A stretch of DNA of 38,082 nucleotides from a virus. Each line of letters starts with the position of its first letter. Position 1 is the first letter of the stretch. The translations under genes and the position numbers were made by a program. The notes under the pieces are model-generated. The model searched no databases. It was not told the origin of the DNA and was given only the letters and a program-made list of their open reading frames with translations. Location of the stretch: IMG/VR virus record IMGVR_UViG_3300027693_000002. The stretch is one strand, 5' to 3'. Shown here one piece after another: positions 1 through 37,824 of this stretch.

Positions 1-1064
1 GTCGGGGCTTTTGACTCAAGAGCGTGAGCTAAAGCCCGATAACAAAAACGTTTCTGACCTCGACATCCAGAGAGATCAAGGTCTTCAAGAACGAAGACCG
101 ATTCTGGATAAGCTAGAAGAAGCTCATTTGATACTCGTCCTGTGATACTCTTAGTAAGCCCAGAAAGCTTGGACTCTAGGCGGTCAAGCCTGGGTGAGTT
201 GTCCTTAAGATTCTGTCTCTGGCGGTTCGAGCGAACCGCCCTGACCTTGTTGTAGAGCTGGTTGAACTTTGGTTGAAGGTCAGCCCCAAACGTGTGTCCA
301 CTCGAAGTAGCCGCTACTACGTTCAGCCCAACGTCGACTCCTACTCGAGGTAACTCTGGCTCAGCTTCCAGAACGAGCCACTCCTTGATATCAACCGCTT
401 CAAAACGCCAACGGCCCTTTCGGTCTTTCCTCGCATGGATTCCCTTGGAAACATCGGAAGCTTTCCTCACATAAGGGTTACCAACCAATGGTAACCAGGC
501 AAGCTTACGCGAAACCAAGGTTGAGATCTTGAGCCAAAAATCAGCGTGGACAGTTTCTTCTGGATCTTCCAATGAGCAAGTGTTTTCCGACATCCTCATT
601 GGAATCCGATTGGACACGCTTGGGAAATTTCCCACTACTTCTGGGTCTGAGAGCCAAGTCCAATACAGATCGATAGCTTCTTGGGAGACAGTGTCCCTTG
701 GCTCATGAACCAGATACTTCTCTACTGTGTAGAGTTGCTTTCGGAAGTCCTCGGTGATTTCACCCCTCTTGAAAGCCAATCGAATGTGGGTCTTGAGCTT
801 CCGGACGTAGACTGATTTAGCTCAAGTACTCACGATCTGAATAGCGTGGTCTCGGGCGTTCTTCTCAATCTGAGATGTGAGCTTCTCAGCTCGTGGAAAG
901 AACTCTTGCTTCTTGGAACGAGGTAAAGTCAGCCTACGAGCTTCAAGCATCGTCTGGACGCAGATCCGAACGTAAGAGACGTATTCGACATGGAGGGCTT
1001 CAAGGGAGGCTAGTTTCCCTGGGTTACACTCGGGGTGCAGCATGAAGAACCGACTCTTCTTCAT
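1..1064 (-). mobile_element. tnpB: IS200/IS605-family TnpB-like (OrfB) RNA-guided nuclease gene. The 5' part is in the window and the 3' end runs off the window start. It is interrupted by a single in-frame TGA at 822-824.
   Basis: The minus-strand frame is open from 821 down to position 1; I checked every in-frame triplet and found no stop. It is in the same frame as the 80-aa ORF 822..1064 that ends with TGA. The translation contains the RuvC-I-like motif GVDVGLNVVAATSSGHTFGADL. It also contains the RuvC-II-like stretch ESVFVLEDLDLSG followed by ...YRALAHALESKAP, which is typical of TnpB/OrfB. No TnpA is adjacent. Confidence 0.7.
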
Positions 1065-1219
1065 CTAATTACATACACCGGAATAATTAGCGGCCTTGAT
1101 CAACTTTGTAAGTTTGAAGTCAACTGCTCGAACCCTCAGATACCTGCTCACCACCTGTCGAACTATTGGGTCAGTCATCAACTGCCAAGACCAATCAATA
1201 GTTTACCAAAAACTCATCC

Positions 1220-1624
1220 TTATTCGTGAGTACTGAACCACCAATTGAGAAGTTCCATAAGCTCTCGTGCCCAACGCTGCTTGAGTACCTCCTCGAAATT
1301 CACCGGTTTGGGGTAATGTACGAGAGTAGCCTGAATATCATGCCCTGAATCAACAAGTTGATGGGCCAACCGCTGGAGCTTAACAGCTAATTCCATTCGA
1401 CTAGGATTGGGCTGCTGACACACATCCTGAAGTCGCTGCAACTCTCTCGACAAGTCTTGGGCATTAGTGATTCTACTCATACTAAAACCTGGTATGAGTA
1501 GATCATTCGAGGATGATCTTACCAGAGCCCCCCGAACAACCATCGGGTCTAAAGCCGAATCTCGGAAGCGCCTGACTTGGTTATCAACCGAACTTTTCCT
1601 GAAAAGTGGTTGACCTTCAACCAC
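1220..1624 (-). CDS. hypothetical protein (134 aa)
   Basis: Six-frame ORF of ordinary composition; no recognisable motif. Confidence 0.35.
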   Translation of the reverse strand: MVEGQPLFRKSSVDNQVRRFRDSALDPMVVRGALVRSSSNDLLIPGFSMSRITNAQDLSRELQRLQDVCQQPNPSRMELAVKLQRLAHQLVDSGHDIQATLVHYPKPVNFEEVLKQRWARELMELLNWWFSTHE

Positions 1625-1836
1625 TCTTCTGCATATCCTCGCCGGGTCTCGACAGAAAATACGACTCCCTTGTACTCGTTTGGCTGTTGAGCTGCTAGCT
1701 CAGGATAGGGGCTAGCAGCTCCTTCGAAGAAAACCTGAATAGTATCTGTGCCCTCGATTCGAAGTATCGTAATCGAGGTCGCAGATCTGAGAAATTCCTT
1801 GAGCATAGGTTGATTTTGGCACCTTACTCGCTCCAA
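1549..1836 (-). CDS. hypothetical protein (95 aa)
   Basis: ORF that overlaps the previous one in another frame; weak support. Confidence 0.3.
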   Translation of the reverse strand: MERVRCQNQPMLKEFLRSATSITILRIEGTDTIQVFFEGAASPYPELAAQQPNEYKGVVFSVETRRGYAEEWLKVNHFSGKVRLITKSGASEIRL

Positions 1837-2181
1837 GTCAAAGACAGCCGTTCGAAGTTACCACCGGATTGTACAAGCCTTGACGACGAGCCCACAACAA
1901 ACGGTACCCGTCACCCGTGGCAGCCCTGCTGGGTTGGTTGCTTCGAACTCCGTAGCTGACCAGTCCATACAGGTAAAAAAGCTATGCCCCTTGGTCCGTA
2001 CATCAGTGAACCCATTGTACTTCAAGGCCCTTTGGGTGCCTGCCTCGTTCGTCCAAGGGAGCAGCCAAGCCACGATGATGAGGATAGAGATCACATGGGG
2101 TATGGTTTTCATGCCAAGTCGATACCCCGGGAGTTGAGTTTTTGAATCCTCGGGTCCCTCCCCGGTGTAACTACCACTCCG

Positions 2182-2868
2182 ATGTCCAACAAAGACCTGC
2201 GTGAACGAAGTGGTAGTGTCAATATTCGAAGCCGGCTTACGAGTTTTCTCTACGATCTCATGCGAGATCACCTAACGCCAGGGGTTGTTGAGGAGCTGGT
2301 TCAGGAGTCCATAGCCATCGAGGTATCCTACACGAATGGGTACCTCGCCCAATACGCCTTCGATATGGCCAAGCGACTAGAGCCCTATCCGTTCTCTCAA
2401 GGGGGGGTCATCAAGGACGTACTCCGAACCTACTTCATGAGGGTCAAAGATGGTCGCATACCTCCTCTCGTGGCGGCCGAAAAGGTCTATGCAGCCATCA
2501 CCGAGAACGATCCTTTGCTTACTGGTAAGGATCGTCACAAGAACGAGACCGTGGACCCACCCAAGGTCAAAGAGTTTGAAAAAGGCTACCTAAAGCAGAG
2601 CATCCGCGAAGCTGAGGATGAGCGTGTCATTCAAGCCATCACCGAGGCCGTGAACCCGCAACCACCAACCCCCGATCCCAATTGGACCCTAATGGTAGGG
2701 AATCGACCAGAAGGCCTCTACGGGGTCTTCTGCGAGCCCATCGGACACAAGGGGAACCCACGCTTCATCGCATCTGATCCCAAGCCCTATGAGGATGCTG
2801 TGAAGGAAGCTGACTTCATGAACCACTCGAACCACGCTTGGCACTACTATGCCAAGCCTCTCCGGTGA
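2182..2868 (+). CDS. hypothetical protein (228 aa)
   Basis: Long ORF with balanced composition. Confidence 0.5.
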   Translation: MSNKDLRERSGSVNIRSRLTSFLYDLMRDHLTPGVVEELVQESIAIEVSYTNGYLAQYAFDMAKRLEPYPFSQGGVIKDVLRTYFMRVKDGRIPPLVAAEKVYAAITENDPLLTGKDRHKNETVDPPKVKEFEKGYLKQSIREAEDERVIQAITEAVNPQPPTPDPNWTLMVGNRPEGLYGVFCEPIGHKGNPRFIASDPKPYEDAVKEADFMNHSNHAWHYYAKPLR

Positions 2869-2942
2869 GACCTTAAACTACTCGCACTCTATTGCAACAT
2901 TTCAACAGCTTCCTGGAAGAGATCGAAATCGACAGGGAGCTG

Positions 2943-2977
2943 TTGAGGTTCCCCTACCTTCGAACGTATAATAGAAC
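2943..2977 (+). promoter_or_regulatory. leaderless promoter variant (TTGAGG-N18-TATAAT-agaac-ATG)
   Basis: TTGAGG at 2943-2948 and TATAAT at 2967-2972, 5 nt before the ATG at 2978. Confidence 0.5.
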
Positions 2978-3310
2978 ATGTCAATTGCAATCAAAAGCCT
3001 GAAGACTGGGGATGTTCTCTACGACTGCCACAAGGAGAGGGCTGGAAATACCACCATGTCTGTAATGAGGGTCTGGAAGATCCAAGTCCTCGAGGTGAAT
3101 CTTGAAGAGGGTAAAGCGCTCATCTCTTGGAACGGAAACTCGCCTGTTTGGAAAACCGAACAGTACTTCCAGGACGCAAGGATCCGTCGGACTCCCCCCG
3201 AGTGGTCCACGATAGGGATCTTCGAAGGCAGAACCTGCTACTTCTGCCGCGCTAAGGAGGTCGACGGTCACACACCTACTTGCACCCACCCCAAGGCCAA
3301 GAAACGTTGA
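2978..3310 (+). CDS. hypothetical Cys/His-containing small protein (110 aa)
   Basis: ORF placed directly after the promoter-like motif. The antisense 290-aa ORF over the same region looks like a shadow ORF. Confidence 0.55.
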   Translation: MSIAIKSLKTGDVLYDCHKERAGNTTMSVMRVWKIQVLEVNLEEGKALISWNGNSPVWKTEQYFQDARIRRTPPEWSTIGIFEGRTCYFCRAKEVDGHTPTCTHPKAKKR

Positions 3311-3327
3311 GTCCAAGCCCCCTACAA

Positions 3328-3420
3328 GGTGCAAAACCAGTACCACCCAAACCCCTTCGAGGCTTCTCCACCTGGGGTTGAAACGGCCCCAAACCCAAAA
3401 ACTAATACTCAGGTTGCACT
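3328..3420 (+). repeat. conserved ~95-nt 3'-UTR/intergenic element, copy 1
   Basis: It shares GCAAAACCAGTACCA, a stem AACCCC/GGGGTT, TTGAA, a CA-rich tract and ATACT...TTGCA with 30286-30380. The stem shows a compensatory change (CCCC/GGGG here, CCCCC/GGGGG in copy 2). Confidence 0.6.
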
Positions 3421-3442
3421 GGCAATACCACTTTTTTGTTGT

Positions 3443-3475
3443 TGAGTTCTCACCCCATCGTGCGTAGTACTTAGC
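3443..3475 (+). promoter_or_regulatory. consensus leaderless promoter (TTGAGT-N14-GCGTAGTA-N6-ATG)
   Basis: TTGAGT at 3443-3448 and GCGTAGTA at 3462-3469, with the ATG at 3476. Confidence 0.6.
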
Positions 3476-3835
3476 ATGTACGACCCAGCAGAGAAGATTG
3501 ACGAAGCTGTTCGAACCACATTGGCCGAGGCATTTCGTTGCGTAGGTTTGGAGCCCTACGCCGTGGTTGCCAGCGAATTCGTTGGGTCTGCATGTACCCT
3601 CCCCAACCACTACAGGACGGTGCCCGAGTTCGTGAATTGGCTTACCATCGGAGCAATCCGGAAGCTTGGGAGGGGGTTGGATCTCCCATGCGAGATGTTG
3701 CGCGAGATAGCACTCAGAATCGAGCACGCTTGCTTCGCTGCGAGTGAGCATGACGTCGATTCGGAGAGTGACGTGGAAACCGAACTCAACGTCGCCAAGC
3801 AAGCCCTCGAAGCCCTTCGGAAGAAGGCTCGCTAA
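3476..3835 (+). CDS. hypothetical protein (119 aa)
   Basis: ORF at the canonical distance from the promoter motif. Confidence 0.6.
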   Translation: MYDPAEKIDEAVRTTLAEAFRCVGLEPYAVVASEFVGSACTLPNHYRTVPEFVNWLTIGAIRKLGRGLDLPCEMLREIALRIEHACFAASEHDVDSESDVETELNVAKQALEALRKKAR

Positions 3836-3840
3836 CCGAT

Positions 3841-3870
3841 AAGAACGGGTCAAGTGGTTGACCCGTTCTT
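3841..3870. terminator. bidirectional hairpin terminator candidate between convergent genes
   Basis: A perfect 13-bp stem, AAGAACGGGTCAA / TTGACCCGTTCTT, with a GTGG loop. It sits between the stop of 3476..3835 (+) and the end of 3882..4172 (-). Confidence 0.5.
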
Positions 3871-3881
3871 CATCTCGTGAC

Positions 3882-4172
3882 TCATGGTTTCCTCAATCGT
3901 CCTACTACGCCGTTGCCACTGACCGTCTTATGCATCACCGTGTGGTCACGTGGCATCTCCGGTAGCCTAGGCTCTTCGTCAAACGGCGAGGTCGCGAACG
4001 GGTACTCCTCATCGAAGGTCAAAGCATTAACCTCGACCGGCTTCCCTTGTTCGTTCTCGGTGATGGTCTTCATCATGTCATCTTGGTTCTCGAACGTGGA
4101 CGTGGGCATTGGAGTGGACTTTAGACCTGGGGGTGGGTTAGGGTCGTAGCAGTTGACTCCAAACCTGATCAA
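3882..4172 (-). CDS. hypothetical acidic protein (96 aa; TTG or an internal ATG start)
   Basis: The minus-strand ORF has a more protein-like composition than the overlapping plus-strand ORF. The start codon is uncertain. Confidence 0.3.
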   Translation of the reverse strand: MIRFGVNCYDPNPPPGLKSTPMPTSTFENQDDMMKTITENEQGKPVEVNALTFDEEYPFATSPFDEEPRLPEMPRDHTVMHKTVSGNGVVGRLRKP

Positions 4173-4526
4173 AGTTACCCGATCATTTTCAACTTGACAA
4201 GAATTCCAATCGGATTTAGCATACCGGCCTCAGGTCATAATTCCGTAAAGTGGTAGATCTGATGGGTCCTTGAAAAGCAAGTCTATCGGGTTCACGGCAC
4301 GAAACAGCGCGTTCCGCGCACTTCCTTGCTGTGGTAAAAGACTTGAGGAAAATCAAGTTGACCAAACACCAAGAGGACTTGATCCTTTCGGGGAAAGTAG
4401 TTCCTAGATCACCTGGACGTTCCAGGACAAAATGGTCGAGGAATGTCGATATTCCTCGAAATTGGTGAATCGATGGATCGAAGGCTATGCCTAAGTTTAC
4501 TTAGGAAGTGTCCCGATCGTCGAATG

Positions 4527-4552
4527 ATGCAGTGCCCGAAGGGGCACTGCAT
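4527..4552 (+). other. GC-rich hairpin (11-bp stem) in the 4150-4650 non-coding region
   Basis: ATGCAGTGCCC-gaag-GGGCACTGCAT. Confidence 0.4.
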
Positions 4553-4651
4553 TCGCGCTATTACCGTACTAGCCGGAGGCTTACTGTGAAGGTAAGATCA
4601 CAAAATCTGGTTCGCATAGCTTCAAACTGAGAGTTCTACTCTAACGTAAGT

Positions 4652-4930
4652 TTGAACACGTTCTCAGATACGGTACTGAGCATGCCAGGACCAATATCCG
4701 ATGTGTATGATCCAGAGTTCTCGACGGTGGCGAATGCTGACCTAGTCCGTTCCGCCATAGAGATCCAACGGGACAAGGTAACCGCCCTACTTGGACCTCA
4801 GTTGCCCAACATCCTTGACGTTGTTGTTAACATGGATAGCAACGAGGGAAAAGAATTCACCATGAAGCTAACGGAGCGAGATCTACGAGTGATTCGCTTT
4901 GCGCTCAATCGAGCACTTGAGACGATCTAG
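4652..4930 (+). CDS. hypothetical protein (92 aa)
   Basis: ORF that follows the structured non-coding region. Confidence 0.45.
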   Translation: MNTFSDTVLSMPGPISDVYDPEFSTVANADLVRSAIEIQRDKVTALLGPQLPNILDVVVNMDSNEGKEFTMKLTERDLRVIRFALNRALETI

Positions 4931-5202
4931 ATCACTGGCACCCGGTGATACCTTGATGGGTACATCGTCTTTGTTGTTTTTGGTACGGGTGGTTCAGTGA
5001 AGAACGGGAGGAGTTGTTCCAACTCTTGTTCGCTTATGTGCAGGGTCACTAAGGCTCCATTAGGAGCCTTGAAGTCTACCGTTGTTATTGTACTGTGGAT
5101 GCTAGGTTCAAATCTTTGAGGACTCTCGTCTCCTACGTTGCGAAGTACTGGGACGAGGGTTCTTGTTTGGCTGAAAGAGCGTTCTAGCTGAAATCCAACT
5201 GT

Positions 5203-5949
5203 TCATAACCCACCTACCCGTAGCACGAGGTTAACGTACTCCAAACCCCGTGGTAGATCCCGGTTCACCAAAACCTTCCGACGAGTGCACGTCGTGGGTG
5301 CCTTGGTCTTGGGGTTGAACCCAGTCCTCTCGAAGTCCTCCCAATAGAGACCGACACCATGCTTTTGCCAGGTAGCGAGCTTGTTGAAATTGATCCCATG
5401 CTGAAAGAGTAGTTCGTTCTTGGCCGAGAAACTCCGACCTTCAAGGACCTCCGTCGCCTGCTTGGCGTTCTTCCCAGCCTTTCTCAACGTCCAGTAACAC
5501 CAGGAGTTCAGACAACAGCGAAAGGCATCCGACTGCCTCCATCGGAAGTAATCGACCACGTCGTTCTCCAAGATCCCCACCCAGACCCGACCGTCAAAGT
5601 GACCAGGCTTGCCCAGCTCCAACGAAAAGGTCGACGACGCTATCCCCGCAGAGACCGACACAAGCTTCTCCACTTCGCGACCGAATAGATCCGTATCACG
5701 AGGCAGTAGAACCGAAATTTCGTCACTCTCCGTGAATGCATAGAGTCCACCTAACTCAATCAACAAAGCCTTCGCCGTCGCCACCATGCACTCGTGAAAC
5801 TTCACATCGAATGGATGCTCCATTCCTCGGGTCAGCTTCGTGAAGCTCCGCCCATCAACACGAACAATGGGATAGGCACCAGGTAAGACTTCCAGCGCAT
5901 GATAGCACTCAAGCCGTCGCATCCGAACATCAAGGTTGTCACTTTTCAT
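5203..5949 (-). CDS. Thg1-like protein (tRNA-His guanylyltransferase / 3'-5' nucleotide polymerase family)
   Basis: 248 aa. The motifs IVRVDGRSF, TESDEISVLL, FDGRVWV, RWRQSDAFRCCLNSWCYWTL and SAKNELLFQHGINFNK align, from memory, with conserved Thg1 blocks ([55 protein letters not shown]). Confidence 0.8.
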   Translation of the reverse strand: MKSDNLDVRMRRLECYHALEVLPGAYPIVRVDGRSFTKLTRGMEHPFDVKFHECMVATAKALLIELGGLYAFTESDEISVLLPRDTDLFGREVEKLVSVSAGIASSTFSLELGKPGHFDGRVWVGILENDVVDYFRWRQSDAFRCCLNSWCYWTLRKAGKNAKQATEVLEGRSFSAKNELLFQHGINFNKLATWQKHGVGLYWEDFERTGFNPKTKAPTTCTRRKVLVNRDLPRGLEYVNLVLRVGGL

Positions 5950-6131
5950 ACTTTGAGGTCACTTCTGTGCTCGAGTAGCTAACCATCCTACGTGATTTCC
6001 TCTAGAAGTCAAAACCTATGTCGCTAGCTACGGAAACCTACCAGGCTTAGGATTAGTATAAGTATATCAAGGGTTTAGACCAGGTAACCCTAGGTCAGAT
6101 AACTCTCTGATGAGATTACATCTGGGGTTTC

Positions 6132-6569
6132 ATGAAAGTCACGAATCTCACCAATGCTCCGATCTACCTGAAGGACTTAAGACTCATTCGGCAGGGTCAA
6201 TCCGAGGCCCGGAGAGCTGAGGACCAGTACATTGGGGCGGGACGTAGTGTTTACCTGCCCGACACTTCAGAAGTCATTCGATCCGCTCAAAAAGGTGATC
6301 TCTATCAGTTCGAGAAGGTGGGTAAGCTAAGGCTCAACGAGATCCTCTCTCTAGCGGCCTTCCCGGGCCCAGGGAACTCAGCAACGATACACCATGACCT
6401 AGGGTATTACCCCAACGCAGCAGCTCTCAAAAAGGTTGTTACGGGTTCGGTAGTCACGTGGTTAACCTCTATAGGTGCCGTAGACATCATCCACAACGCT
6501 ACCTTCACAGAGACCACCTTCATCAATACAGTGGCCTTGCCTTTAGAGTTCTTAGTAAGGGTTGGATAA
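6132..6569 (+). CDS. hypothetical protein (145 aa), translationally coupled to the downstream tailspike-like gene
   Basis: Its 8-nt overlap with 6562..8526 suggests a two-gene structural module. Confidence 0.5.
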   Translation: MKVTNLTNAPIYLKDLRLIRQGQSEARRAEDQYIGAGRSVYLPDTSEVIRSAQKGDLYQFEKVGKLRLNEILSLAAFPGPGNSATIHHDLGYYPNAAALKKVVTGSVVTWLTSIGAVDIIHNATFTETTFINTVALPLEFLVRVG

Positions 6570-8526
6570 TATGACAGTTACACCACAAGAACTCGCTCGT
6601 GATGACTTCGGGACTATCATCCGAAAGCTCAACGTCCCCGGGGGACCCAACTCCTTTAGCCTTGGTGACGTCATCATCATCGATGACGTCAACGGGAATG
6701 ACTCAACGGGAGTGATCAACGGATTACCCTTCAAAACAGTTGAAGCCGCCATCGCCTACATCAATACGTATGGCTTCACGGAAGTGACTATGTGGCTCTT
6801 ACCGGGGCGGTATACTATCGCTGCCGGGTTCGTAATGCCCGCCACCTGCTCAATGCGTGGATTCAGCTTGCAAGTGTGCAGCATCACACTCACTACCTCT
6901 GTAAGCGCTACAATGATCACGATGGGGGAGAATTCTCGTATAGAGGATCTGACCCTGAACTTAACGTCAACATCAGATACGGCTAACCTAGTACTACTTG
7001 AGCTCCCGGGTACGACGTCAATCACATCGAAGATCAGAACTTGCGTTCTCAATATAGATAACGCCACAGTCTCGACGGGCAGTACCACCAACGTGTATGG
7101 CCTCTACGTGACAGGTACCGGTATCCTTGGGCCAGCAACGTTCAGCTTCAATCAAACTCGAAGTAGCACAATGAATCTCCGTTCCAACGGGAATGGCCAC
7201 AAGTACGGGATCTACTTGCCCCCGACAGGCTCCGGGTGTCAGATCTCCTGGAGAGACTCAAACATTTACGTTGCCGCCCCACGAGACTTGGCCTCAGCGG
7301 GTAACTACACTGGGGTTTGCTGTGAGAATAACAACAGCCAAATCCAGCTAAGAACAACCTCCATATCTGGAGTACCCTATCAATCACCAACTACTAACCC
7401 CTCGGTACGCCTGTTCTCACTTGTGAACACGACTCTATCAGGGATCCAAACCATTCAAGGAGTCACACTGGTCGCTGGTGACCGAATCCTCCTCGGAAGT
7501 CAAAACACAGAAACCCAGAACTCTGTTTGGATAGTTGCTAGTGAGGCTTGGACCCGTGCGGCAGATATGCCCCTTGGCAGCAATGCCAGTGGATCTTGGA
7601 TAGAGGTGCAAGAAGGAAGCTTCGCGTCCCAAAAGTGGCTCTGTGTTAGTTACCCAGCCACAGTTGGCACAGATCCTCTAACCTGGAGACACACCTATAG
7701 CGGGGTAGATCTCAAGTTGCCCGTGATGGCCAGGTATACAGGGGGATCCCCTACAGGATCTAGAGCAGCTCAAGGCTCCTACACGCCCGCCGAAGGAGAT
7801 CGCCTATTCTTGGATCAGGCCACAAGTGCAGTAAACAATGGTACTTGGACCTACAATTCGACTGGAGCCTGGACTCGGGCTGGGGATATGCCCGCAGGAA
7901 CAACTTCCTTCAATGCCTACATAACTGTGGAGGGTGGTACAGATGAAGGACACGCATTCATCTGCACTACCGTGGGTACTGTGGATACAGATGATCTAAC
8001 GTTTGTGCCCAAGTACAACGGATCGGATATCCTTCAACTCCTACCGCTCTCGGGTAACGTGCCCAATGGCATCAACGTCGGGCCTGGTGTTGACTTGGTT
8101 ACGAAAAGTACCAATGGCAAGCCTTTCTCAACATACACGAGACCAAATACTTTCGTGTATGGCTATCGAGGTAACCTGCCTAATGGTATCAGGTACCTAT
8201 GGCAAGGACTGCAGACCGCGTTGGACAGTACCCAGGTATTCTACCGCTTCCAGCAAGATACCATCGTGCAAGGGATCTCCATCGTAGTTAGGAACACAGA
8301 TTTAGGCACCACTGTGGTTAAGGCAACGGCACTCAAGTCCTTGAGTGGTATCGCCGGACAGGGGATCCACACTCCAGTGAGTGTGAGCATCACTAACGGG
8401 ATCACTATGGCAGAGAATTACAAATCTTCTATACTGTTCGAACGAGCCTCATTCCTCGCAGTACAACTAGAATCTAACTCACCCGTTAGCCCCGGAGACT
8501 TCACTGTCGAGATTGATGCCTACTGA
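6562..8526 (+). CDS. tailspike / tail-fiber-like receptor-binding protein, with an N-terminal pectate-lyase-type beta-helix signature and two ~60-aa C-terminal tandem repeats
   Basis: 654 aa, Ser/Thr/Gly/Asn-rich. The N-terminal pattern GDVIIIDD...PFKTVEAAIAYIN...GRYTI resembles the starts of beta-helix depolymerases. Internal repeats GDRxxL...AWTRAxDMPxG...GTDxLTW/F occur twice. Confidence 0.55.
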   Translation: MDNMTVTPQELARDDFGTIIRKLNVPGGPNSFSLGDVIIIDDVNGNDSTGVINGLPFKTVEAAIAYINTYGFTEVTMWLLPGRYTIAAGFVMPATCSMRGFSLQVCSITLTTSVSATMITMGENSRIEDLTLNLTSTSDTANLVLLELPGTTSITSKIRTCVLNIDNATVSTGSTTNVYGLYVTGTGILGPATFSFNQTRSSTMNLRSNGNGHKYGIYLPPTGSGCQISWRDSNIYVAAPRDLASAGNYTGVCCENNNSQIQLRTTSISGVPYQSPTTNPSVRLFSLVNTTLSGIQTIQGVTLVAGDRILLGSQNTETQNSVWIVASEAWTRAADMPLGSNASGSWIEVQEGSFASQKWLCVSYPATVGTDPLTWRHTYSGVDLKLPVMARYTGGSPTGSRAAQGSYTPAEGDRLFLDQATSAVNNGTWTYNSTGAWTRAGDMPAGTTSFNAYITVEGGTDEGHAFICTTVGTVDTDDLTFVPKYNGSDILQLLPLSGNVPNGINVGPGVDLVTKSTNGKPFSTYTRPNTFVYGYRGNLPNGIRYLWQGLQTALDSTQVFYRFQQDTIVQGISIVVRNTDLGTTVVKATALKSLSGIAGQGIHTPVSVSITNGITMAENYKSSILFERASFLAVQLESNSPVSPGDFTVEIDAY

Positions 8527-13365: not shown

Positions 13366-13399
13366 TTGAGAGTTCGGGTGCTCGTGCGTAATAGAGGGC
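13366..13399 (+). promoter_or_regulatory. consensus leaderless promoter
   Basis: TTGAGA, a 14-nt spacer, GCGTAATA (13386-13393), gagggc, then ATG at 13400. Confidence 0.65.
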
Positions 13400-13963: not shown

Positions 13964-13999
13964 TTGAGTTCTCTAGGCGCCCATGCGTAATAGGGTGGC
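13964..13999 (+). promoter_or_regulatory. consensus leaderless promoter
   Basis: TTGAGT (13964-13969), 15-nt spacer, GCGTAATA (13985-13992), then ATG at 14000. Confidence 0.65.
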
Positions 14000-14356
14000 A
14001 TGAGCAAAGTCGAACGAGAAGCTGTCATCCTGAACACGGTTCCTGGTTCGAAGTGGTATCAGTGCGTGAATAGCAAGTGGGTAGTGGGCTTGGTCGAGAG
14101 GGTAACCAAGACTACGATCTACCTCGAAGGGGGGACTCGCATCTCGAAGAGGAACTGTCGTGACCAAGATGGTTGGGCTTGGTATCCACCCACTCAGAAC
14201 ATCGTCAAGCAGTTCGAGGACTTTGAGGTCGCCAGGGTTGCTTACGAGGCGGCCGTAGAGAAGCTTCGAGAGGCAGCTCAGCGTGCTACGCCTGCTCAAC
14301 TTCTCAAGCTAGCCACTCAGCTAGAGAGCCTCATTGACCTGTCGGAGATTCACTGA
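14000..14356 (+). CDS. family B small protein (118 aa), with paralogues at 15380 and 16333
   Basis: Shared ...NTVPGSKWYQC...W...VTKTT...GG..ISK..CRD..G..W.PPTQ...; promoter motif upstream. Confidence 0.75.
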   Translation: MSKVEREAVILNTVPGSKWYQCVNSKWVVGLVERVTKTTIYLEGGTRISKRNCRDQDGWAWYPPTQNIVKQFEDFEVARVAYEAAVEKLREAAQRATPAQLLKLATQLESLIDLSEIH

Positions 14357-18670: not shown

Positions 18671-18700
18671 GGTTCTCGAAGCTCGCGCGTAATAAGAGGC
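18667..18700 (+). promoter_or_regulatory. consensus leaderless promoter
   Basis: TTGAGG (18667-18672), 14-nt spacer, GCGTAATA (18687-18694), then ATG at 18701. Confidence 0.65.
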
Positions 18701-18919
18701 ATGCCCAAGACGAAAAAGCTAACCCCCACCCAGGTTAAAACTCTCCAAGAGATCATCAAGATTACGGGTGTGGGGTTTCCTTGGAGTTGTGTCCCGGAAT
18801 ACAAGCCGGCTCTTAAGCTGCTCGAGCTCGGGTACGTGTCGAAGACTAAAAGTTTAGGTGGGTCTCTAATCATCTTGGTTCCGACCGAGCTAGGTCGATC
18901 AGTGGCTTCGAGCTTGTAA
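18701..18919 (+). CDS. family D small protein (72 aa)
   Basis: Paralogue of 21236..21475, with the shared block WSC.PEYKPALKLLEL.YVSK...LVPTELGRSVAS. Confidence 0.7.
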   Translation: MPKTKKLTPTQVKTLQEIIKITGVGFPWSCVPEYKPALKLLELGYVSKTKSLGGSLIILVPTELGRSVASSL

Positions 18920-23951: not shown

Positions 23952-23981
23952 GCTTCGTGTTGCCCGCGCGTAATACTGGGC
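23948..23981 (+). promoter_or_regulatory. consensus leaderless promoter
   Basis: TTGAGC (23948-23953), 14-nt spacer, GCGTAATA (23968-23975), then ATG at 23982. Confidence 0.6.
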
Positions 23982-24245
23982 ATGGCACATAGAACTCACC
24001 GCAAGTTGGCAAAGCGACTGATCAGCCCTTGTTGGATGATCCGGACCGGGATTGCTTGCGAGCAGATCTCCCCCGTGTATCCGACCCTTGAGAAGGGATT
24101 CGAGGAGGTGGTCTCCGCCGTTTGCGGGTTTGACCCACTGTCAAGTCCGGACACCATCGAGCTCGTCCGCCACAGTCGGCGGAATCCAAAGCTTCTCGTC
24201 CGGTACTACTGTACGGATGAGGGGAAGATCGTCCAGGTTCAGTAG
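23982..24245 (+). CDS. hypothetical protein (87 aa)
   Basis: ORF at the promoter. Confidence 0.55.
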   Translation: MAHRTHRKLAKRLISPCWMIRTGIACEQISPVYPTLEKGFEEVVSAVCGFDPLSSPDTIELVRHSRRNPKLLVRYYCTDEGKIVQVQ

Positions 24246-27422: not shown

Positions 27423-27452
27423 GTTTCTGAGCCCTTATGCGTAATACTGGGC
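27419..27452 (+). promoter_or_regulatory. consensus leaderless promoter
   Basis: TTGAGT (27419-27424) overlaps the stop of the previous gene; GCGTAATA (27439-27446); then ATG at 27453. Confidence 0.6.
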
Positions 27453-27671
27453 ATGCCGAATGAAGACCATCAGGTGGTGCTTGGAATCCAAGTAAAGAAG
27501 AACGCAAAGGGGATGCGAGTGGGAGCCTCGAAAGAGGTTTTCCACATGACGATTGGGCTGAGCCAGAAGGCCATGATCCTTCCGGGTCGTCACTTGGTGG
27601 TGCTCGGGACCCGACGTTACCGGGTAGAGGTCGACCAGAACAAGAACCTCAAGATTACTCGTACGGTTTGA
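27453..27671 (+). CDS. hypothetical basic protein (72 aa)
   Basis: A frameshifted remnant of its 5' end, with its own promoter, recurs at 31651. Confidence 0.6.
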   Translation: MPNEDHQVVLGIQVKKNAKGMRVGASKEVFHMTIGLSQKAMILPGRHLVVLGTRRYRVEVDQNKNLKITRTV

Positions 27672-28944: not shown

Positions 28945-29039
28945 CGAAGGTCAGAAGCTAAACCCCTCCTTGACTAGCTGTAGTGGGGTCCTTGACTAGC
29001 TGTAGTGGTTAGTGGGAGGGGTTTAGTTCCTGACCTTCG
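28945..29039 (+). ncRNA. 95-nt hairpin leader / ncRNA candidate. The ~25-bp stem has a 4-nt internal mismatch. The 45-nt loop holds two tandem copies of CCTTGACTAGCTGTAGTGG.
   Basis: The 5' arm CGAAGGTCAGAAGCTAAACCCCTCC (28945-28969) pairs with GGAGGGGTTTAGTTCCTGACCTTCG (29015-29039). The predicted transcription start of the upstream promoter is at about 28944. Confidence 0.45.
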
Positions 29040-30380: not shown

Positions 30381-30673
30381 GAACCTACATGCCAACGCCT
30401 CGCAAGAAGCCCACCAAGAAAGTCCACGAGCTCAACCGGAACCTCTTCATCGAATGGTCCAAGGGGACACTCCTGAAGAGGGATCGGAAGGGACGCTGCC
30501 TGGTATTGGACGGCTCGGACTTCGCTCGTAAGTGTGAGGCAGCCGAGGCCGATCTGGAACTGGGGGCTACGCTCTACCTCACTGACGACGCTGGCAAGCG
30601 GATCACTAAGATCACTTCCGATGGGAAGGGTTACGAGGAAGTTCTGGTGACCCGCTACCGGAAGCTATCCTAG
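30374..30673 (+). CDS. hypothetical basic protein (99 aa)
   Basis: ORF that begins inside the tail of the 95-nt element. Confidence 0.45.
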   Translation: MQRTYMPTPRKKPTKKVHELNRNLFIEWSKGTLLKRDRKGRCLVLDGSDFARKCEAAEADLELGATLYLTDDAGKRITKITSDGKGYEEVLVTRYRKLS

Positions 30674-30840
30674 AGAGACATCCTACGCTGGCACGACGAG
30701 TATCTTACGGCCTCAGGCTCATGGCTCCCTGTCTATAGCAAGGCCTCAGGCTCATGGCATACAGTGGGAAGGCATCCCTACCCCGGAACCGAGTATCGAA
30801 GGCCCCTACCCAAGCGTAAGAACTCCTCTTAAAGCCCACC

Positions 30841-31155
30841 ATGCACCTGGTAGTGAACCTCGATGACTACGCCTGGCTCATCCTACCAAGGCGTAGTGTG
30901 GCCCATGCGTTCGCCAGAGGTGCCTCAAGAGGCCTCTGTGGAATGACAAAGTCCTACCCCCTAGAACACTTGACTGCATCTACACCTACGACACGTAGGT
31001 GCGAAGCTTGCCTTATGTCACTTGTATCAGGGGTAAGCTCTGCTGAATACAAGTTCTTCCTAGGATTTGTCCCAGAGAAGGCCAGGCTGCGACGCCGGTC
31101 CGCCTGGAAGGCTTTCCTACGTGAACACCGTTCTGTGAAACTTACTCAAAGTTAG
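30841..31155 (+). CDS. hypothetical protein (104 aa), weak
   Basis: ORF only. Confidence 0.25.
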   Translation: MHLVVNLDDYAWLILPRRSVAHAFARGASRGLCGMTKSYPLEHLTASTPTTRRCEACLMSLVSGVSSAEYKFFLGFVPEKARLRRRSAWKAFLREHRSVKLTQS

Positions 31156-31616
31156 CTTTGATGTTCACTTCCTGCTTCAACGAATCATAACTCGTAGTCC
31201 GAAGTTTCCCTCGTTCCGCCGTTAGAGGGTTCTCCACAGGCTTTCAGAGATCATAGATCTCCACGTTTCCCCTAAACTATGGGTACGTTAAACCTACGTA
31301 AAGTTGGTTCTTTTCTTGATTCCTCAAGTCTTTTACCGCAACAAGGACAACGACATTGCGCCTTCGGCGCAAGTCTTTCGTGTTGCGAACCACTTAGACT
31401 TGCTTTTCAAGGATCATCTCAGGTCTTCCCTTGGTTTTCGGGTTTAGTTGCCTGAGTCCACGAACCTTGATTCAGTCCTGAGAAAATGTCAAGCTAATCT
31501 GGTTTGATCAACTTTGATCAACTTTTCTTTCAGCTGCTCCAACCCCCAATACGGTCCGCCCTCTTGGAGGGACCGCTCCATTGGAGCAGGAAAGTGACCC
31601 GGCACTAAGAAAGACG

Positions 31617-31650
31617 TTGAGTCCATCCAAGCTCATGCGTAATACTGGCC
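31617..31650 (+). promoter_or_regulatory. consensus promoter driving a decayed gene copy
   Basis: TTGAGT (31617-31622), 14-nt spacer, GCGTAATA (31637-31644), then ATG at 31651. Confidence 0.55.
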
Positions 31651-31662
31651 ATGACCGAATGA
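31651..31662 (+). pseudogene. remnant of the 27453 gene's 5' end (ATGaCCGAATGAgg versus ATGCCGAATGAAG), frameshifted by a 1-nt insertion so that a stop follows after 3 codons
   Basis: Direct comparison of the two promoter-plus-start regions. Confidence 0.45.
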
Positions 31663-31744
31663 GGCTCCTGTAACGTAAGAGGTATATTCCTCAGAGGGAG
31701 CGTACCCGACCAGCGGACGATGTCTCAGATGCAATGTCGGGTGA

Positions 31745-31769
31745 TAGGGTTCGATTCCCTAGGGGAGTC
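31745..31769 (+). other. tRNA-like T-arm plus 3' acceptor fragment (TAGGG-TTCGATT-CCCTA-GGGGAGT-C)
   Basis: A canonical T-loop (TTCGATT) with a 5-bp stem. A possible 5' acceptor partner, ATTCCTC, lies at 31686-31692. I could not fold a convincing D arm or anticodon arm, so this is not called a tRNA. Confidence 0.2.
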
Positions 31770-31833
31770 TCAAATGGTCTACTGGTCAGGACTTCTAACC
31801 TAAGTACCACAACAACAAACCTGACTAGTGCAC

Positions 31834-31875
31834 CGACAAGGGCGACAAGGCTACTTCCAGCCCTGTCGCCCTTGT
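31834..31875 (+). terminator. 13-bp stem hairpin (GACAAGGGCGACA / TGTCGCCCTTGTC), terminator-like
   Basis: Strong GC hairpin followed by CTATTCC. Confidence 0.35.
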
Positions 31876-32025
31876 CCTATTCCATCCTCAGCTCTACGCC
31901 CCCACCTTAGCCTGGTGCTTCGCAACCCTGCTGTAGGTATGGCCAGCTAGCCTACTACTCTGCCTAGTATTTCGGCCCTCGGTGCTACCAACCTCTCGTT
32001 GGCATGCTATTTTCCTATACTCTAT

Positions 32026-32060
32026 GTGTAAGGCAGGGCACATTGTGCCCTGCCTTACAC
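32026..32060. other. perfect palindrome GTGTAAGGCAGGGCACA-T-TGTGCCCTGCCTTACAC in the non-coding region
   Basis: Read directly from the sequence. ACACA/TGTGTG-rich repeats that follow (32061-32130) resemble those at 12969-13018. Confidence 0.6.
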
Positions 32061-32738
32061 ACAATCAAACAAGAGCAACACACAATCAACACAATGCATA
32101 TGAGTTGTGTGTGAACTGTGTGTCAATAATGGCACGAAACACGCGCGAAGCGCAGGTTGTGTGTTGAACTTTTAGTAGAAATTCGATTGATTATCCCCTG
32201 GCCGCCCGGCCCAGAGGGTTTCGGGGCGTATTCAGTTAACGAGATCTACTGGTGCGGTAGAAGAATTATCCTGTCCGACCGGTCAAGGCGCCTACGGCGC
32301 GGTGAAAGGTAAGAACTCGAGTTCGTGATATTGCTCGAGTTTATGAGAAAACTTGAATTTCAAGGGAGTGTTTGGGTTCGGACGAGGCCTCAAGTCAAGG
32401 CGCCTACGGCGCGGTGAGGGGTTGGGGAATCCAGGATAATTCCGATTGTAAGCATGGGGTTGGGGTCAAAAGGGGACCCGTGGAAGACAGGGTGGGACCT
32501 TCAAAAAGTGGCCCGGCGGCTAAAAATTCGGTGTCCGGGGAAGGTGCGCGGATCGCGAAATGTAGTATGGTGGCTTAAAATTTGGAAACTCGATAATTAT
32601 CGGCCAAGTAACCAACGATGTCTAGGCGGGCGGAACGAGTGGTTCCGGCCGCTATTGCTCATGAGTCCTTGGAGAGAACGTGATACCTGAGCTGACTCGC
32701 CATGGTGTGCTGCCACCAAGCCCGGTGTATGTTGTTAG

Positions 32739-33056
32739 ATGATCGAAAAGGGATCTTGCAAGTGCATGTGGGACCTGACGAGTGAGGGGATCGAGCTTGT
32801 TAAGAGCGAGTATCGGAGCAACCACAAGAAGCTCTTTGAGCTGAGCCTCTCCCATCAGGAAGGGGGTCTTTTTTCTGAAGAGCATCTTCGAGTGGCACGA
32901 TACTTTGGTGACTTCTTCAATCTTGAAGGCCCAGAGGAGTGGTTGCCGGGTTTCTGCCAGGCCCTTAAGCACGAGTCTTCGAGTAGTGACCACAATGGGG
33001 ACACGTTCCAGGTTTTGGAAACCGACCTTCAAGGACGTGTTCGACAGGAACCTTAG
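32739..33056 (+). CDS. hypothetical protein (105 aa)
   Basis: More protein-like than the overlapping Pro-rich 246-aa minus-strand ORF. TATGTT lies 5 nt before the ATG. Confidence 0.4.
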   Translation: MIEKGSCKCMWDLTSEGIELVKSEYRSNHKKLFELSLSHQEGGLFSEEHLRVARYFGDFFNLEGPEEWLPGFCQALKHESSSSDHNGDTFQVLETDLQGRVRQEP

Positions 33057-36922: not shown

Positions 36923-37201
36923 CTAATGCGCGTCTTCTTGGTCAGGCCCTCTTCCATCCTCTTCCAGTAATCTTTGATCGAACTCTTTCAGTATTCGCTC
37001 GTACCTCGTTTGCTGAGCTGGTGAGATTACTTGCAGTACTTCCTCACTGGTTAGTTCGATGCCTCGCTCTCTTGCAAGTCGCAGGATCTCCTCCAGGGGT
37101 TTATCCTTGTGGTAGATGATGTGGACAATCTTCTGCATACTACCATTCAGAGGTTCGCTCTTCACGAGCCCAATTGTCAAGAGACTAGGCCAACACTGCA
37201 C
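36923..37201 (-). CDS. small protein immediately downstream of the sigma factor gene (92 aa, or ~71 aa from the internal ATG at ~37138)
   Basis: Same strand as the sigma gene. An anti-sigma or regulator role is only a guess. Confidence 0.35.
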   Translation of the reverse strand: MQCWPSLLTIGLVKSEPLNGSMQKIVHIIYHKDKPLEEILRLARERGIELTSEEVLQVISPAQQTRYERILKEFDQRLLEEDGRGPDQEDAH

Positions 37202-37824
37202 AAGTCTGTTCCAAGCGCCCTCTTGATCTTTGTGATGACTCGAGTTTTGATTTGGCTGACTCGGGGTTCAGTGGTACCCCAAGCAAGGGCGATGTCTAGG
37301 AGGCGGTCGCCGAGGGCGATGGCTTCGAGGACTTGGCGTTCTCGGTCACGGAGGGGGACGGAGTCGACCTGTTGGAAGACTTCTCGGAAGTAAACGACGT
37401 CATCTGGGGAAGAGCGGTGGGAAGCGAGTAGGACCTCGTCGAGGTCATTGAACCGGGGTTTGTTTTTGGCCTTGAGCATTCTACGTGGTAGGGCGGCTTC
37501 ACCTCGAATCTCGTCCCAGATTTGGCCTCGGATACGGAGACGGGCGTATAAGGGGAAGGTGGCCTCGTCGCCAATGAAGCGCGTGCAGGCGTTCCACAGG
37601 CCGATAGATCCGAAGTGCTCTAAGGTTTTGAGGTCATAGATGAGGGACATTTTCCGGAGGGCGAACTTGGCTTCCAGGGTGACCAGGTGCAGGTGGTTCT
37701 TGAAGCGGTCCTGGATAGGATCCTTTTTGATGGGGAGTGGGTCACCGATGGGGTTAGCTATCTGGCGCAGGCTAATCCCTCTTGCGGCTTCTTCGATCTT
37801 TTTGGAGTCAGCGAAGTTAGCCAC
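37177..37824 (-). CDS. sigma-70-family RNA polymerase sigma factor (215 aa; regions 2 and 4 only)
   Basis: The C-terminal stretch RDRERQVLEAIALGDRLLDIALAWGTTEPRVSQIKTRVITKIKRAL is a typical region-4 HTH. The central part resembles region 2. The start is GTG. Confidence 0.75.
   Translation of the reverse strand: MANFADSKKIEEAARGISLRQIANPIGDPLPIKKDPIQDRFKNHLHLVTLEAKFALRKMSLIYDLKTLEHFGSIGLWNACTRFIGDEATFPLYARLRIRGQIWDEIRGEAALPRRMLKAKNKPRFNDLDEVLLASHRSSPDDVVYFREVFQQVDSVPLRDRERQVLEAIALGDRLLDIALAWGTTEPRVSQIKTRVITKIKRALGTDLCSVGLVS

Follow-up and report, generated by a model that had tools for sequence, protein, structure and literature searches.

A gene for a TnpB-type RNA-guided nuclease lies at the edge of the viral DNA stretch IMGVR_UViG_3300027693_000002 (IMG/VR; 38,082 nt, hereafter the window), where its reading frame on the minus strand is broken by a single in-frame TGA. 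We consider it very likely that this gene is a recent, ordinary tnpB pseudogene that arose by one TGG-to-TGA transition and calls for no unusual decoding. In the course of events that we propose, the ancestor would have been an IS607-family element (a tnpA serine recombinase gene, tnpB and the guide RNA termed ωRNA) resident in large or huge phages, and the window copy would be a solo tnpB left without tnpA and without the left end, in which a single G-to-A change converted the TGG of the conserved Trp81 into TGA. Read with the standard code, the frame would then close after 80 residues and well short of the RuvC nuclease domain, so that no functional TnpB would be made from the window copy and nuclease function would be lost, which is what would make the gene a pseudogene. 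The inactivation would be recent, in that the remaining codons are open and the D/E/D catalytic residues, the zinc finger and the ωRNA are intact.

Read on the minus strand from position 1064 to position 3, the window yields 354 codons of tnpB with one stop only, a coding-strand TGA at codon 81 (plus-strand 'tca' at 822-824), and the two remaining minus-strand frames of the region contain many stops; a preliminary description of the stretch had reported a frame of more than 350 codons with a single TGA after an 80-aa open reading frame (ORF), which the translation confirms. The gene runs off the window start and could be followed further in L039 (Joint Genome Institute, JGI, contig Ga0105098_10001804; 7,682 nt), which had been assembled independently from a named sample. 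Exact look-ups of homologue P0084 and of the 80-aa ORF matched nothing, and L039 was reached through P0122, which shares a 90% cluster with P0084. L039 is 100% identical to window positions 1-7235, continues 447 nt past the window start and holds the complete tnpB, 475 codons with the identical single internal TGA. Its extension supplies the CPSC…CRQC zinc finger, the RuvC-III motif HADVVG (D395) and a terminating TGA with 83 nt behind it, of which the first 35 reach the conserved right end; the zinc finger, ωRNA and right end that the preliminary description had placed beyond the window start are thus all located there. The features of the gene are as follows.

1-1064, minus strand: tnpB codons 1-354 of 475, from translation, truncated by the window start.
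L039 7236-7633, beyond the window start: last 121 tnpB codons, stop and right end.
822-824, minus strand: in-frame TGA at codon 81, a Trp (TGG) column in relatives, with a third-base G-to-A change.
822-1064, minus strand: 80-aa N-terminal ORF from the ORF list, in which the RuvC domain is absent.
720-722, minus strand: G115E substitution at a column invariant in 70 homologues.
333-335, minus strand: codon of the RuvC-I aspartate D244, in GVDVGLN, a column invariant in the 70-homologue alignment.
273-275, minus strand: K264Q substitution at a column otherwise invariant in 70 homologues.
84-86, minus strand: codon of the RuvC-II glutamate E327, in VLEDLDL, a column invariant in the 70-homologue alignment.
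1065-1086, minus strand: 22-nt segment 5' of the ATG, TTATTCCGGTGTATGTAATTAG, common to the solo copy L021 alone (blastn boundaries).

Public gene calls begin after the internal TGA on at least three contigs (7.7, 99 and 102 kb), and their products of 380 and 320 aa are 100% identical to the window translation. A sequencing or assembly error over a true TGG codon would require a difference of just one base, but the same base recurs in L039 over 7,235 identical nucleotides and the gene calls on the 99-kb and 102-kb contigs likewise start past the stop, and an error is accordingly a very remote prospect: seen in several assemblies, the TGA is a real allele and not a one-off read error. The phage is carried by JGI samples 3300009081, 3300027956 and 3300027675. 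A megablast search of window positions 1-6000 against GenBank phages returned zero matches.

What the TGA replaced can be read from the relatives. A database search returned 338 homologues, most of them about 475 aa long and covering the protein end to end, the best being 88% identical. In more than 110 full-length homologues the TGA column is Trp, the tryptophan of the motif IVSTWAKSVY, nearly invariant among 21 aligned sequences and invariant across 70 homologues down to 52% identity. The codon itself is TGG in nine related loci with the matched motif and in all seven DNA-aligned relatives, from which the window copy differs at that codon solely by a third-base G-to-A change; the interruption therefore amounts to a single TGG-to-TGA transition, and of the two residues, Trp or Gly, that the preliminary description had proposed looking for at this column, it is Trp that occupies it. 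In an AlphaFold2 model built for P0001, the intact homologue with 88% identity (pLDDT 80.9), W81 falls inside a long, confidently modelled helix (residues 64-99), and residues 1-80 span a strand at 6-9, helices at 15-41 and 49-55 and the start of the 64-99 helix. Given that position, the 80-aa ORF, the sole product expected under the standard code, would comprise the first beta strand and the first helices and, judged from the model, would lack most of the REC region as well as the entire RuvC domain.

TGA might alternatively be reassigned to tryptophan (a code 4-like change) in this phage, either throughout or in its late genes. The alignment of the TGA with Trp invites this reading and such recoding is known in phages; however, the recoding reported for some phage lineages (bioRxiv 10.1101/2021.08.26.457843) predicts a pattern opposite to that of the window. 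The window is phage-like, with genes for a Thg1-type enzyme, a sigma factor and a 654-aa protein with virion and immunoglobulin-like PHROG matches, and in a crude self-trained gene model (64 genes in the window, 63 stops) TGA accounts for 35 of the 63 predicted stops, including those of Thg1, the sigma factor and the 654-aa virion protein. The Thg1 match covers the Pfam and PHROG profiles almost to their ends before its TGA, ATGA start/stop overlaps are present among the window genes, and some TGA stops are embedded in the TTGA with which a conserved, repeated intergenic promoter-like motif begins before the next gene. When the in-frame continuation was scored behind each TGA-ended gene, a long coding-like frame was found for tnpB only (273 codons, score +21); four shorter positive continuations correspond to a following gene that shares the frame and has its own promoter and ATG. 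Behind the sigma gene the next in-frame stop comes 4 codons on, with two further TGAs before the first TAA or TAG. The preliminary description had pointed to repeated stops at this gene and had judged global recoding unlikely, and our results agree on both counts.

Two further ways of probing TGA gave nothing in favour of sense decoding. Read-through was considered at the same-frame pairs 18440/18701, 23568/23982, 27150/27453 and 28412/28703 and rejected: every gap contains the promoter motif and an ATG of its own, and the motif also separates genes in different frames. Dropping TGA from the stop set was uninformative, with ORFs lengthening in every frame, TGA being the commonest stop trinucleotide. 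No tRNA genes were found in the 38-kb window and no tRNA(UCA) in the large tRNA arrays of related phages, one of which holds a tRNA-Trp(CCA); the window G+C content is ~53%. The fold of the 76 nt that begin with the stop is no better than that of shuffled sequence (z = -0.07), with no hairpin resembling a selenocysteine insertion sequence (SECIS) beyond chance. Given normal termination at TGA, the chance-level fold and the lack of a suppressor tRNA in the window and related arrays, recoding and selenocysteine are both unsupported. We hold reassignment to be highly improbable, and the chance of selenocysteine at UGA81 to be negligible: an in-frame UGA is all that speaks for it, but homologues have Trp at this position and neither Cys nor Sec, and the downstream sequence matches that of TGG-bearing relatives. 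TGA is an ordinary stop codon in this phage. The preliminary description had itself said that a sense codon in intact homologous copies would mark a simple pseudogene, and intact homologues do have Trp (TGG) at this column; of the options that it listed, this is the one left, with selenocysteine and TGA recoding unsupported.

The state of the rest of the gene bears on how recent the lesion may be. The other 474 codons contain zero further stops or frameshifts, the 394 codons after the TGA being open, and the catalytic D/E/D residues and zinc finger are intact in the window copy, a condition that would fit a recent nonsense mutation. Three columns that are invariant in the 70 homologues are altered (W81*, G115E and K264Q), as is one nearly invariant column (P450S), giving four deviations at conserved columns against a family median of two. 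Related copies are mostly open; L021 and L023 are frameshifted, so damaged copies are not rare among the family.

Several observations weigh against a plain loss of function. Apart from the stop the ORF is nearly undecayed, and lineage-specific nonsynonymous and synonymous changes number 21 and 21, a ratio within the spread of 0.52-1.03 seen in four intact relatives and well under the neutral value of ~2.5-3, the latter being our own estimate from codon-table composition; this count may leave room for continued selection, for example through leaky read-through. The identical TGA allele occurs in several assemblies and so persists in the population. UGA is the leakiest stop codon, with tRNA-Trp as its near-cognate reader, so that read-through would give the wild-type protein, and a suppressor tRNA may be present elsewhere in the source genome. 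Leaky or programmed read-through, whereby tRNA-Trp would sometimes read UGA81 to make a little wild-type TnpB and the stop would act as an attenuator of a nuclease risky to the phage genome, accommodates these points, as it does the placement of the stop exactly at a Trp codon, where near-cognate decoding would restore the native residue, and the intactness of the ωRNA along with the ORF. We nevertheless regard it as unlikely: the UGA is followed by G, and UGAG is not the weakest context for termination, no stimulatory structure is seen in the sequence 3' of the stop, TGA occurs at codon 81 in none of the related copies read, so that the feature is not conserved, and an equally intact gene is expected after a recent nonsense mutation. 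Quite unlikely, too, is a leaky UGA81 gate that would pass a trickle of wild-type TnpB as a low-dose self-targeting nuclease, with the ωRNA still transcribed and perhaps serving paralogous TnpBs in trans; tRNA-Trp genes can be carried by the huge phages of this group themselves, one related array holding tRNA-Trp(CCA).

The identity of the interrupted protein is supported at the level of domains, active site and predicted fold. The full-length sequence matches PF07282 (the TNB zinc finger) at 50.4 bits against a cutoff of 26.3, this domain lying between RuvC-II and RuvC-III and containing the CPSC…CRQC motif, and the columns of the catalytic triad D244 (GVDVGLN), E327 (LEDLDL) and D395 (HADVVG) are all three invariant in 70 homologues. 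Whole-protein models remain below threshold because the lineage is divergent: guided_TnpB (NCBIfam) reaches 82 bits against a cutoff of 100, OrfB_IS605 (Pfam) 18 against 30.5, IS607_TnpB (NCBIfam NF038280) 33 against 350 and IS200_TnpB (NF038281) 22 against 425, and the N-terminal ~200 residues match no model. A Foldseek search of the PDB with the P0001 model gave 51 hits at E<=1e-3, and all 50 of those listed are Cas12, TnpB, Fanzor or TranC proteins, with AsCas12f as the best match (E 6.6e-14), followed by ISFba1 TnpB (9.7e-12), ISDra2 TnpB (1.4e-11) and Fanzor2 (1.3e-8); TM-scores are low (~0.3), which is to be expected when a multi-domain protein is modelled with its RNA missing. Among solved structures the closest in sequence is CasΦ-3 (7odf; E 4.8e-9), through a local match of ~48 residues in its TNB/RuvC-III segment. 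Taken together with the ωRNA described below, domain, catalytic residues and predicted fold place the gene in the TnpB/Cas12 superfamily of RNA-guided nucleases, in keeping with the preliminary assignment to TnpB, and the function predicted for that superfamily is DNA cleavage with an RNA guide and dependence on a target-adjacent motif (TAM).

The related copies also reveal the element from which the gene would derive. An IS607 transposase gene lies directly upstream of tnpB in about half of the loci, TnpA having been found in 12; that of L029 (8916-9539) joins a MerR-type helix-turn-helix to a resolvase domain, passes the NF033518 cutoff of 110 bits with a score of 191.8 and overlaps the tnpB start by 4 nt (ATGA). 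By comparison of copies the full element measures ~2.3 kb, beginning ~240 nt upstream of tnpA with CAAGGGTTGCC and closing ~35 nt past the tnpB stop at …GAGTACGGT. The right end is present in the window copy (L039 up to 7633), but the ~240-nt left end is missing according to blastn boundaries and printed junctions, and no tnpA was found beside the window tnpB or elsewhere in the window. Homology of the window copy to all copies except L021 ends at the ATG; the solo copies L002, L004 and L005 retain short remnants of the tnpA C-terminus. Without tnpA and a left end the window copy is unable to transpose alone, and the comparison points to a non-autonomous IS607-type derivative, neither a complete IS607 element nor an IS1341-like one. 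The preliminary description was thus right about the missing TnpA and the solo status of the gene and wrong in calling it IS1341-like, as the relatives carry the IS607 serine recombinase; of the insertion sequence ends that it had suggested seeking in the flanks, the right one is there and the left one is not.

Left junctions yielded no convincing TAM, apart from a GGT that recurs near both junctions. This trinucleotide is found at or near the junctions of L027, L029, L007, L009, L011, L039 and L021, in the contexts AGGGT or GGGGT at the left end, C(C/T)GGT before the 22-nt segment of solo copies and ACGGT at the right end, and it may represent the serine-recombinase core or part of the TAM. 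The spacing of the two genes varies, tnpA and tnpB overlapping in L027 and L029 and being separated in L007 by ~760 nt of unrelated sequence (5241-6001). In a distant subfamily (L017, L019, L022 and L003; ~5920-6000) a near-consensus sigma-70 promoter, CTTGACAG-N-TAAAAT, is conserved 5' of the tnpB ATG, along with a short hairpin, CCTGCTTGAAACAAGAAGCAGG, likewise 5' of the ATG, where tnpA would be.

At the other end of the gene the ωRNA could be delimited. All copies terminate alike, with a hairpin and then TTTyNrGGAACGGT or GAGTACGGT, after which the sequence is unrelated, and at least 20 copies share a sharp homology boundary ~35 nt past the stop. An alignment of the last 230 nt of 20 copies gave a consensus structure of 37 pairs in seven helices, with compensatory changes in 23 of the 37. 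Paired cells amount to 93.5%, compared with 77% in column shuffles (0 of 500 reaching the observed value) and 27-55% with slid partners, and the covariation score is 0.556 compared with 0.25 in shuffles and 0.06-0.14 in slid controls. Rfam detects no family in the window or in L039, and the 3' RNA does not correspond to a described family such as RAGATH-18. The scaffold of the window copy lies wholly outside the window (L039 7404-7633) and keeps 33 of the 37 pairs, with the same four exceptions as intact L027, which indicates that it is undamaged; the presumed guide begins at L039 7634, CTTATGCATACCTCATAATG. We infer that the 3' RNA would act as a guide RNA, its guide being taken from the flank that starts CTTATGCATACC, and that it would be loaded by TnpB to direct cleavage, by analogy with the established behaviour of TnpB-ωRNA systems (PMC8612924 and PMC10690162). 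A candidate outward promoter across the right end (L039 7623-7652; TTGAGT-18-CATAAT, then ATG) was discarded as probably due to chance, its count in a scan being no higher than in shuffled sequence and the site not being common to relatives either.

An intact scaffold beside a broken nuclease gene raises the prospect of a locus kept for its guide, the ωRNA being loaded in trans by an intact paralogous TnpB of the same phage. The presence of two to three diverged copies per related phage contig would make such a partner available, the last 60 nt of the scaffold differ by one base from the intact, TnpA-linked L027, and sample 3300027956, the source of the identical L026, also yielded L037 with the exact Thg1 protein of this phage. 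Still, there is no second tnpB copy within the 38-kb window, and the 3' conservation is explained equally by recency and by overlap with coding sequence, and we see in this proposal a slim possibility. Identity along the copy is mosaic (L039 6172-7633), the last ~400 nt of the gene being 94-98% identical to L021 compared with 81-93% elsewhere, with the same 3' bias towards L027; such a pattern points to exchange between copies by recombination or gene conversion, or else to additional constraint from the overlapping ωRNA.

Relatives occur in IMG/VR contigs of 125-620 kb, often with two to three copies per contig whose mutual identity is just 75-87%, and three copies of the family lie in LR745208.1, a huge-phage genome of 485 kb that has been published but is unannotated. 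Matches in genome collections are few and fall on short contigs of metagenome-assembled genomes (MAGs) from unrelated phyla, which we take to be mis-binned phage DNA. The lineage thus appears confined to huge-phage contigs, often as several diverged copies per genome. One 'Nanoarchaeota' MAG contig of 249 kb (L006 6001-6300) carries an isolated N-terminal fragment, the first ~100 codons at 65% identity, in AT-rich surroundings. Arrays of tRNA genes hold or adjoin family copies in L029 (1118-12836 and 19486-19832), L009 (9307-12742), L013 (3191-6828) and L024 (11971-12490); in L029, 22 tRNAs flank tnpA-tnpB, together with a tmRNA whose tag reads ANDNAIAAAA.

Among known systems, the IS607 family is one close parallel. 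As with ISFba1 TnpB (PDB 8iaz), the relatives sit directly 3' of an IS607 serine-recombinase TnpA, and IS607-family TnpB proteins share with them the RuvC D/E/D triad, the C4 zinc-finger TNB domain and a structured RNA that overlaps the 3' end of the ORF and stops at a sharp right-end boundary before unrelated flank, the expected guide. The solved ISFba1 chain, however, has 384 residues compared with 475 aa here, the sequence is far from the curated IS607 models, the window copy lacks tnpA and the left end and has a premature stop, and in contrast to RAGATH-18 the 3' end belongs to no known Rfam family. ISDra2 TnpB resembles the family in predicted fold (8h1j, E 1.4e-11; 8exa, 4.2e-6), as a compact RNA-guided RuvC nuclease and in drawing its ωRNA from the 3' end of the gene and the right end, but it is shorter (~340-360 aa vs. 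475 aa). Solo tnpB copies without tnpA are common in IS200/IS605 elements (the IS1341 type), yet the partner transposase among the relatives here is a serine recombinase and not a Y1 HUH enzyme. AsCas12f is the nearest structural match, and CasΦ (Cas12j) also occurs in huge phages, as does this tnpB family; CasΦ is nevertheless much larger (~700-800 aa) and similar only locally, and in contrast to both Cas12f and CasΦ the guide here would come from a transposon-end ωRNA, with no CRISPR array near the gene and no CRISPR-array-like repeats in the window or L039. Huge-phage Cas12-like proteins without arrays that cluster with TnpB and Cas12f are reported in PMC11748809, and viral TnpB branches and serine-recombinase associations in the TnpB diversity survey PMC10691335; the ωRNA, ends and nonsense allele of the present lineage do not appear to be described in either source.

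The TGA itself matters little, being one more nonsense mutation in a transposon gene, and the result warns against taking a single in-frame stop for recoding. More useful is its by-product, a well-defined, divergent lineage of ~475-aa TnpBs on huge-phage contigs, often beside tRNA arrays, for which the mapped right end and covarying ωRNA provide a ready scaffold and guide junction for testing a phage-borne IS607-type TnpB. The lineage should also be useful for studying how phage-resident TnpBs relate to CasΦ and Cas12f.

Other features of the window concern the phage rather than the element. The promoter-like motif mentioned above, TTGAGt-N17-GCGTAATA-N6-7-ATG, recurs on the plus strand between window positions 13386 and 31653 (for example at 13985-14002, 18687-18703, 23968-23984 and 27439-27455), and its core, GCGTAATA-N4-8-ATG, occurs 15 times compared with 0.05 expected. 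TTGAG(T/G)T usually stands ~17 nt upstream of the GCGTAATA core, and its TGA is often the stop of the preceding gene. With the ATG just 6-7 nt past TAATA, the arrangement points to small genes that each have a promoter of their own and to mRNAs that are leaderless or nearly so, and the set may constitute the regulon of a phage sigma factor. A sigma-factor-like gene with a weak match to Sigma70 region 4 (PHROG 351) and a TGA stop lies at 37177-37824 on the minus strand. The Thg1-type tRNA-His guanylyltransferase is encoded at 5203-5949, also on the minus strand (Pfam Thg1 and Thg1C; PHROG 4717), and an identical Thg1 protein turns up in at least two further JGI samples, on short contigs only. 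The crude gene model leaves a stretch of ~2 kb (30673-32739) without a predicted gene, and a perfect 22-nt tandem duplication, TCCTTGACTAGCTGTAGTGGGG, is present in 1.9 copies at 28967-29008.

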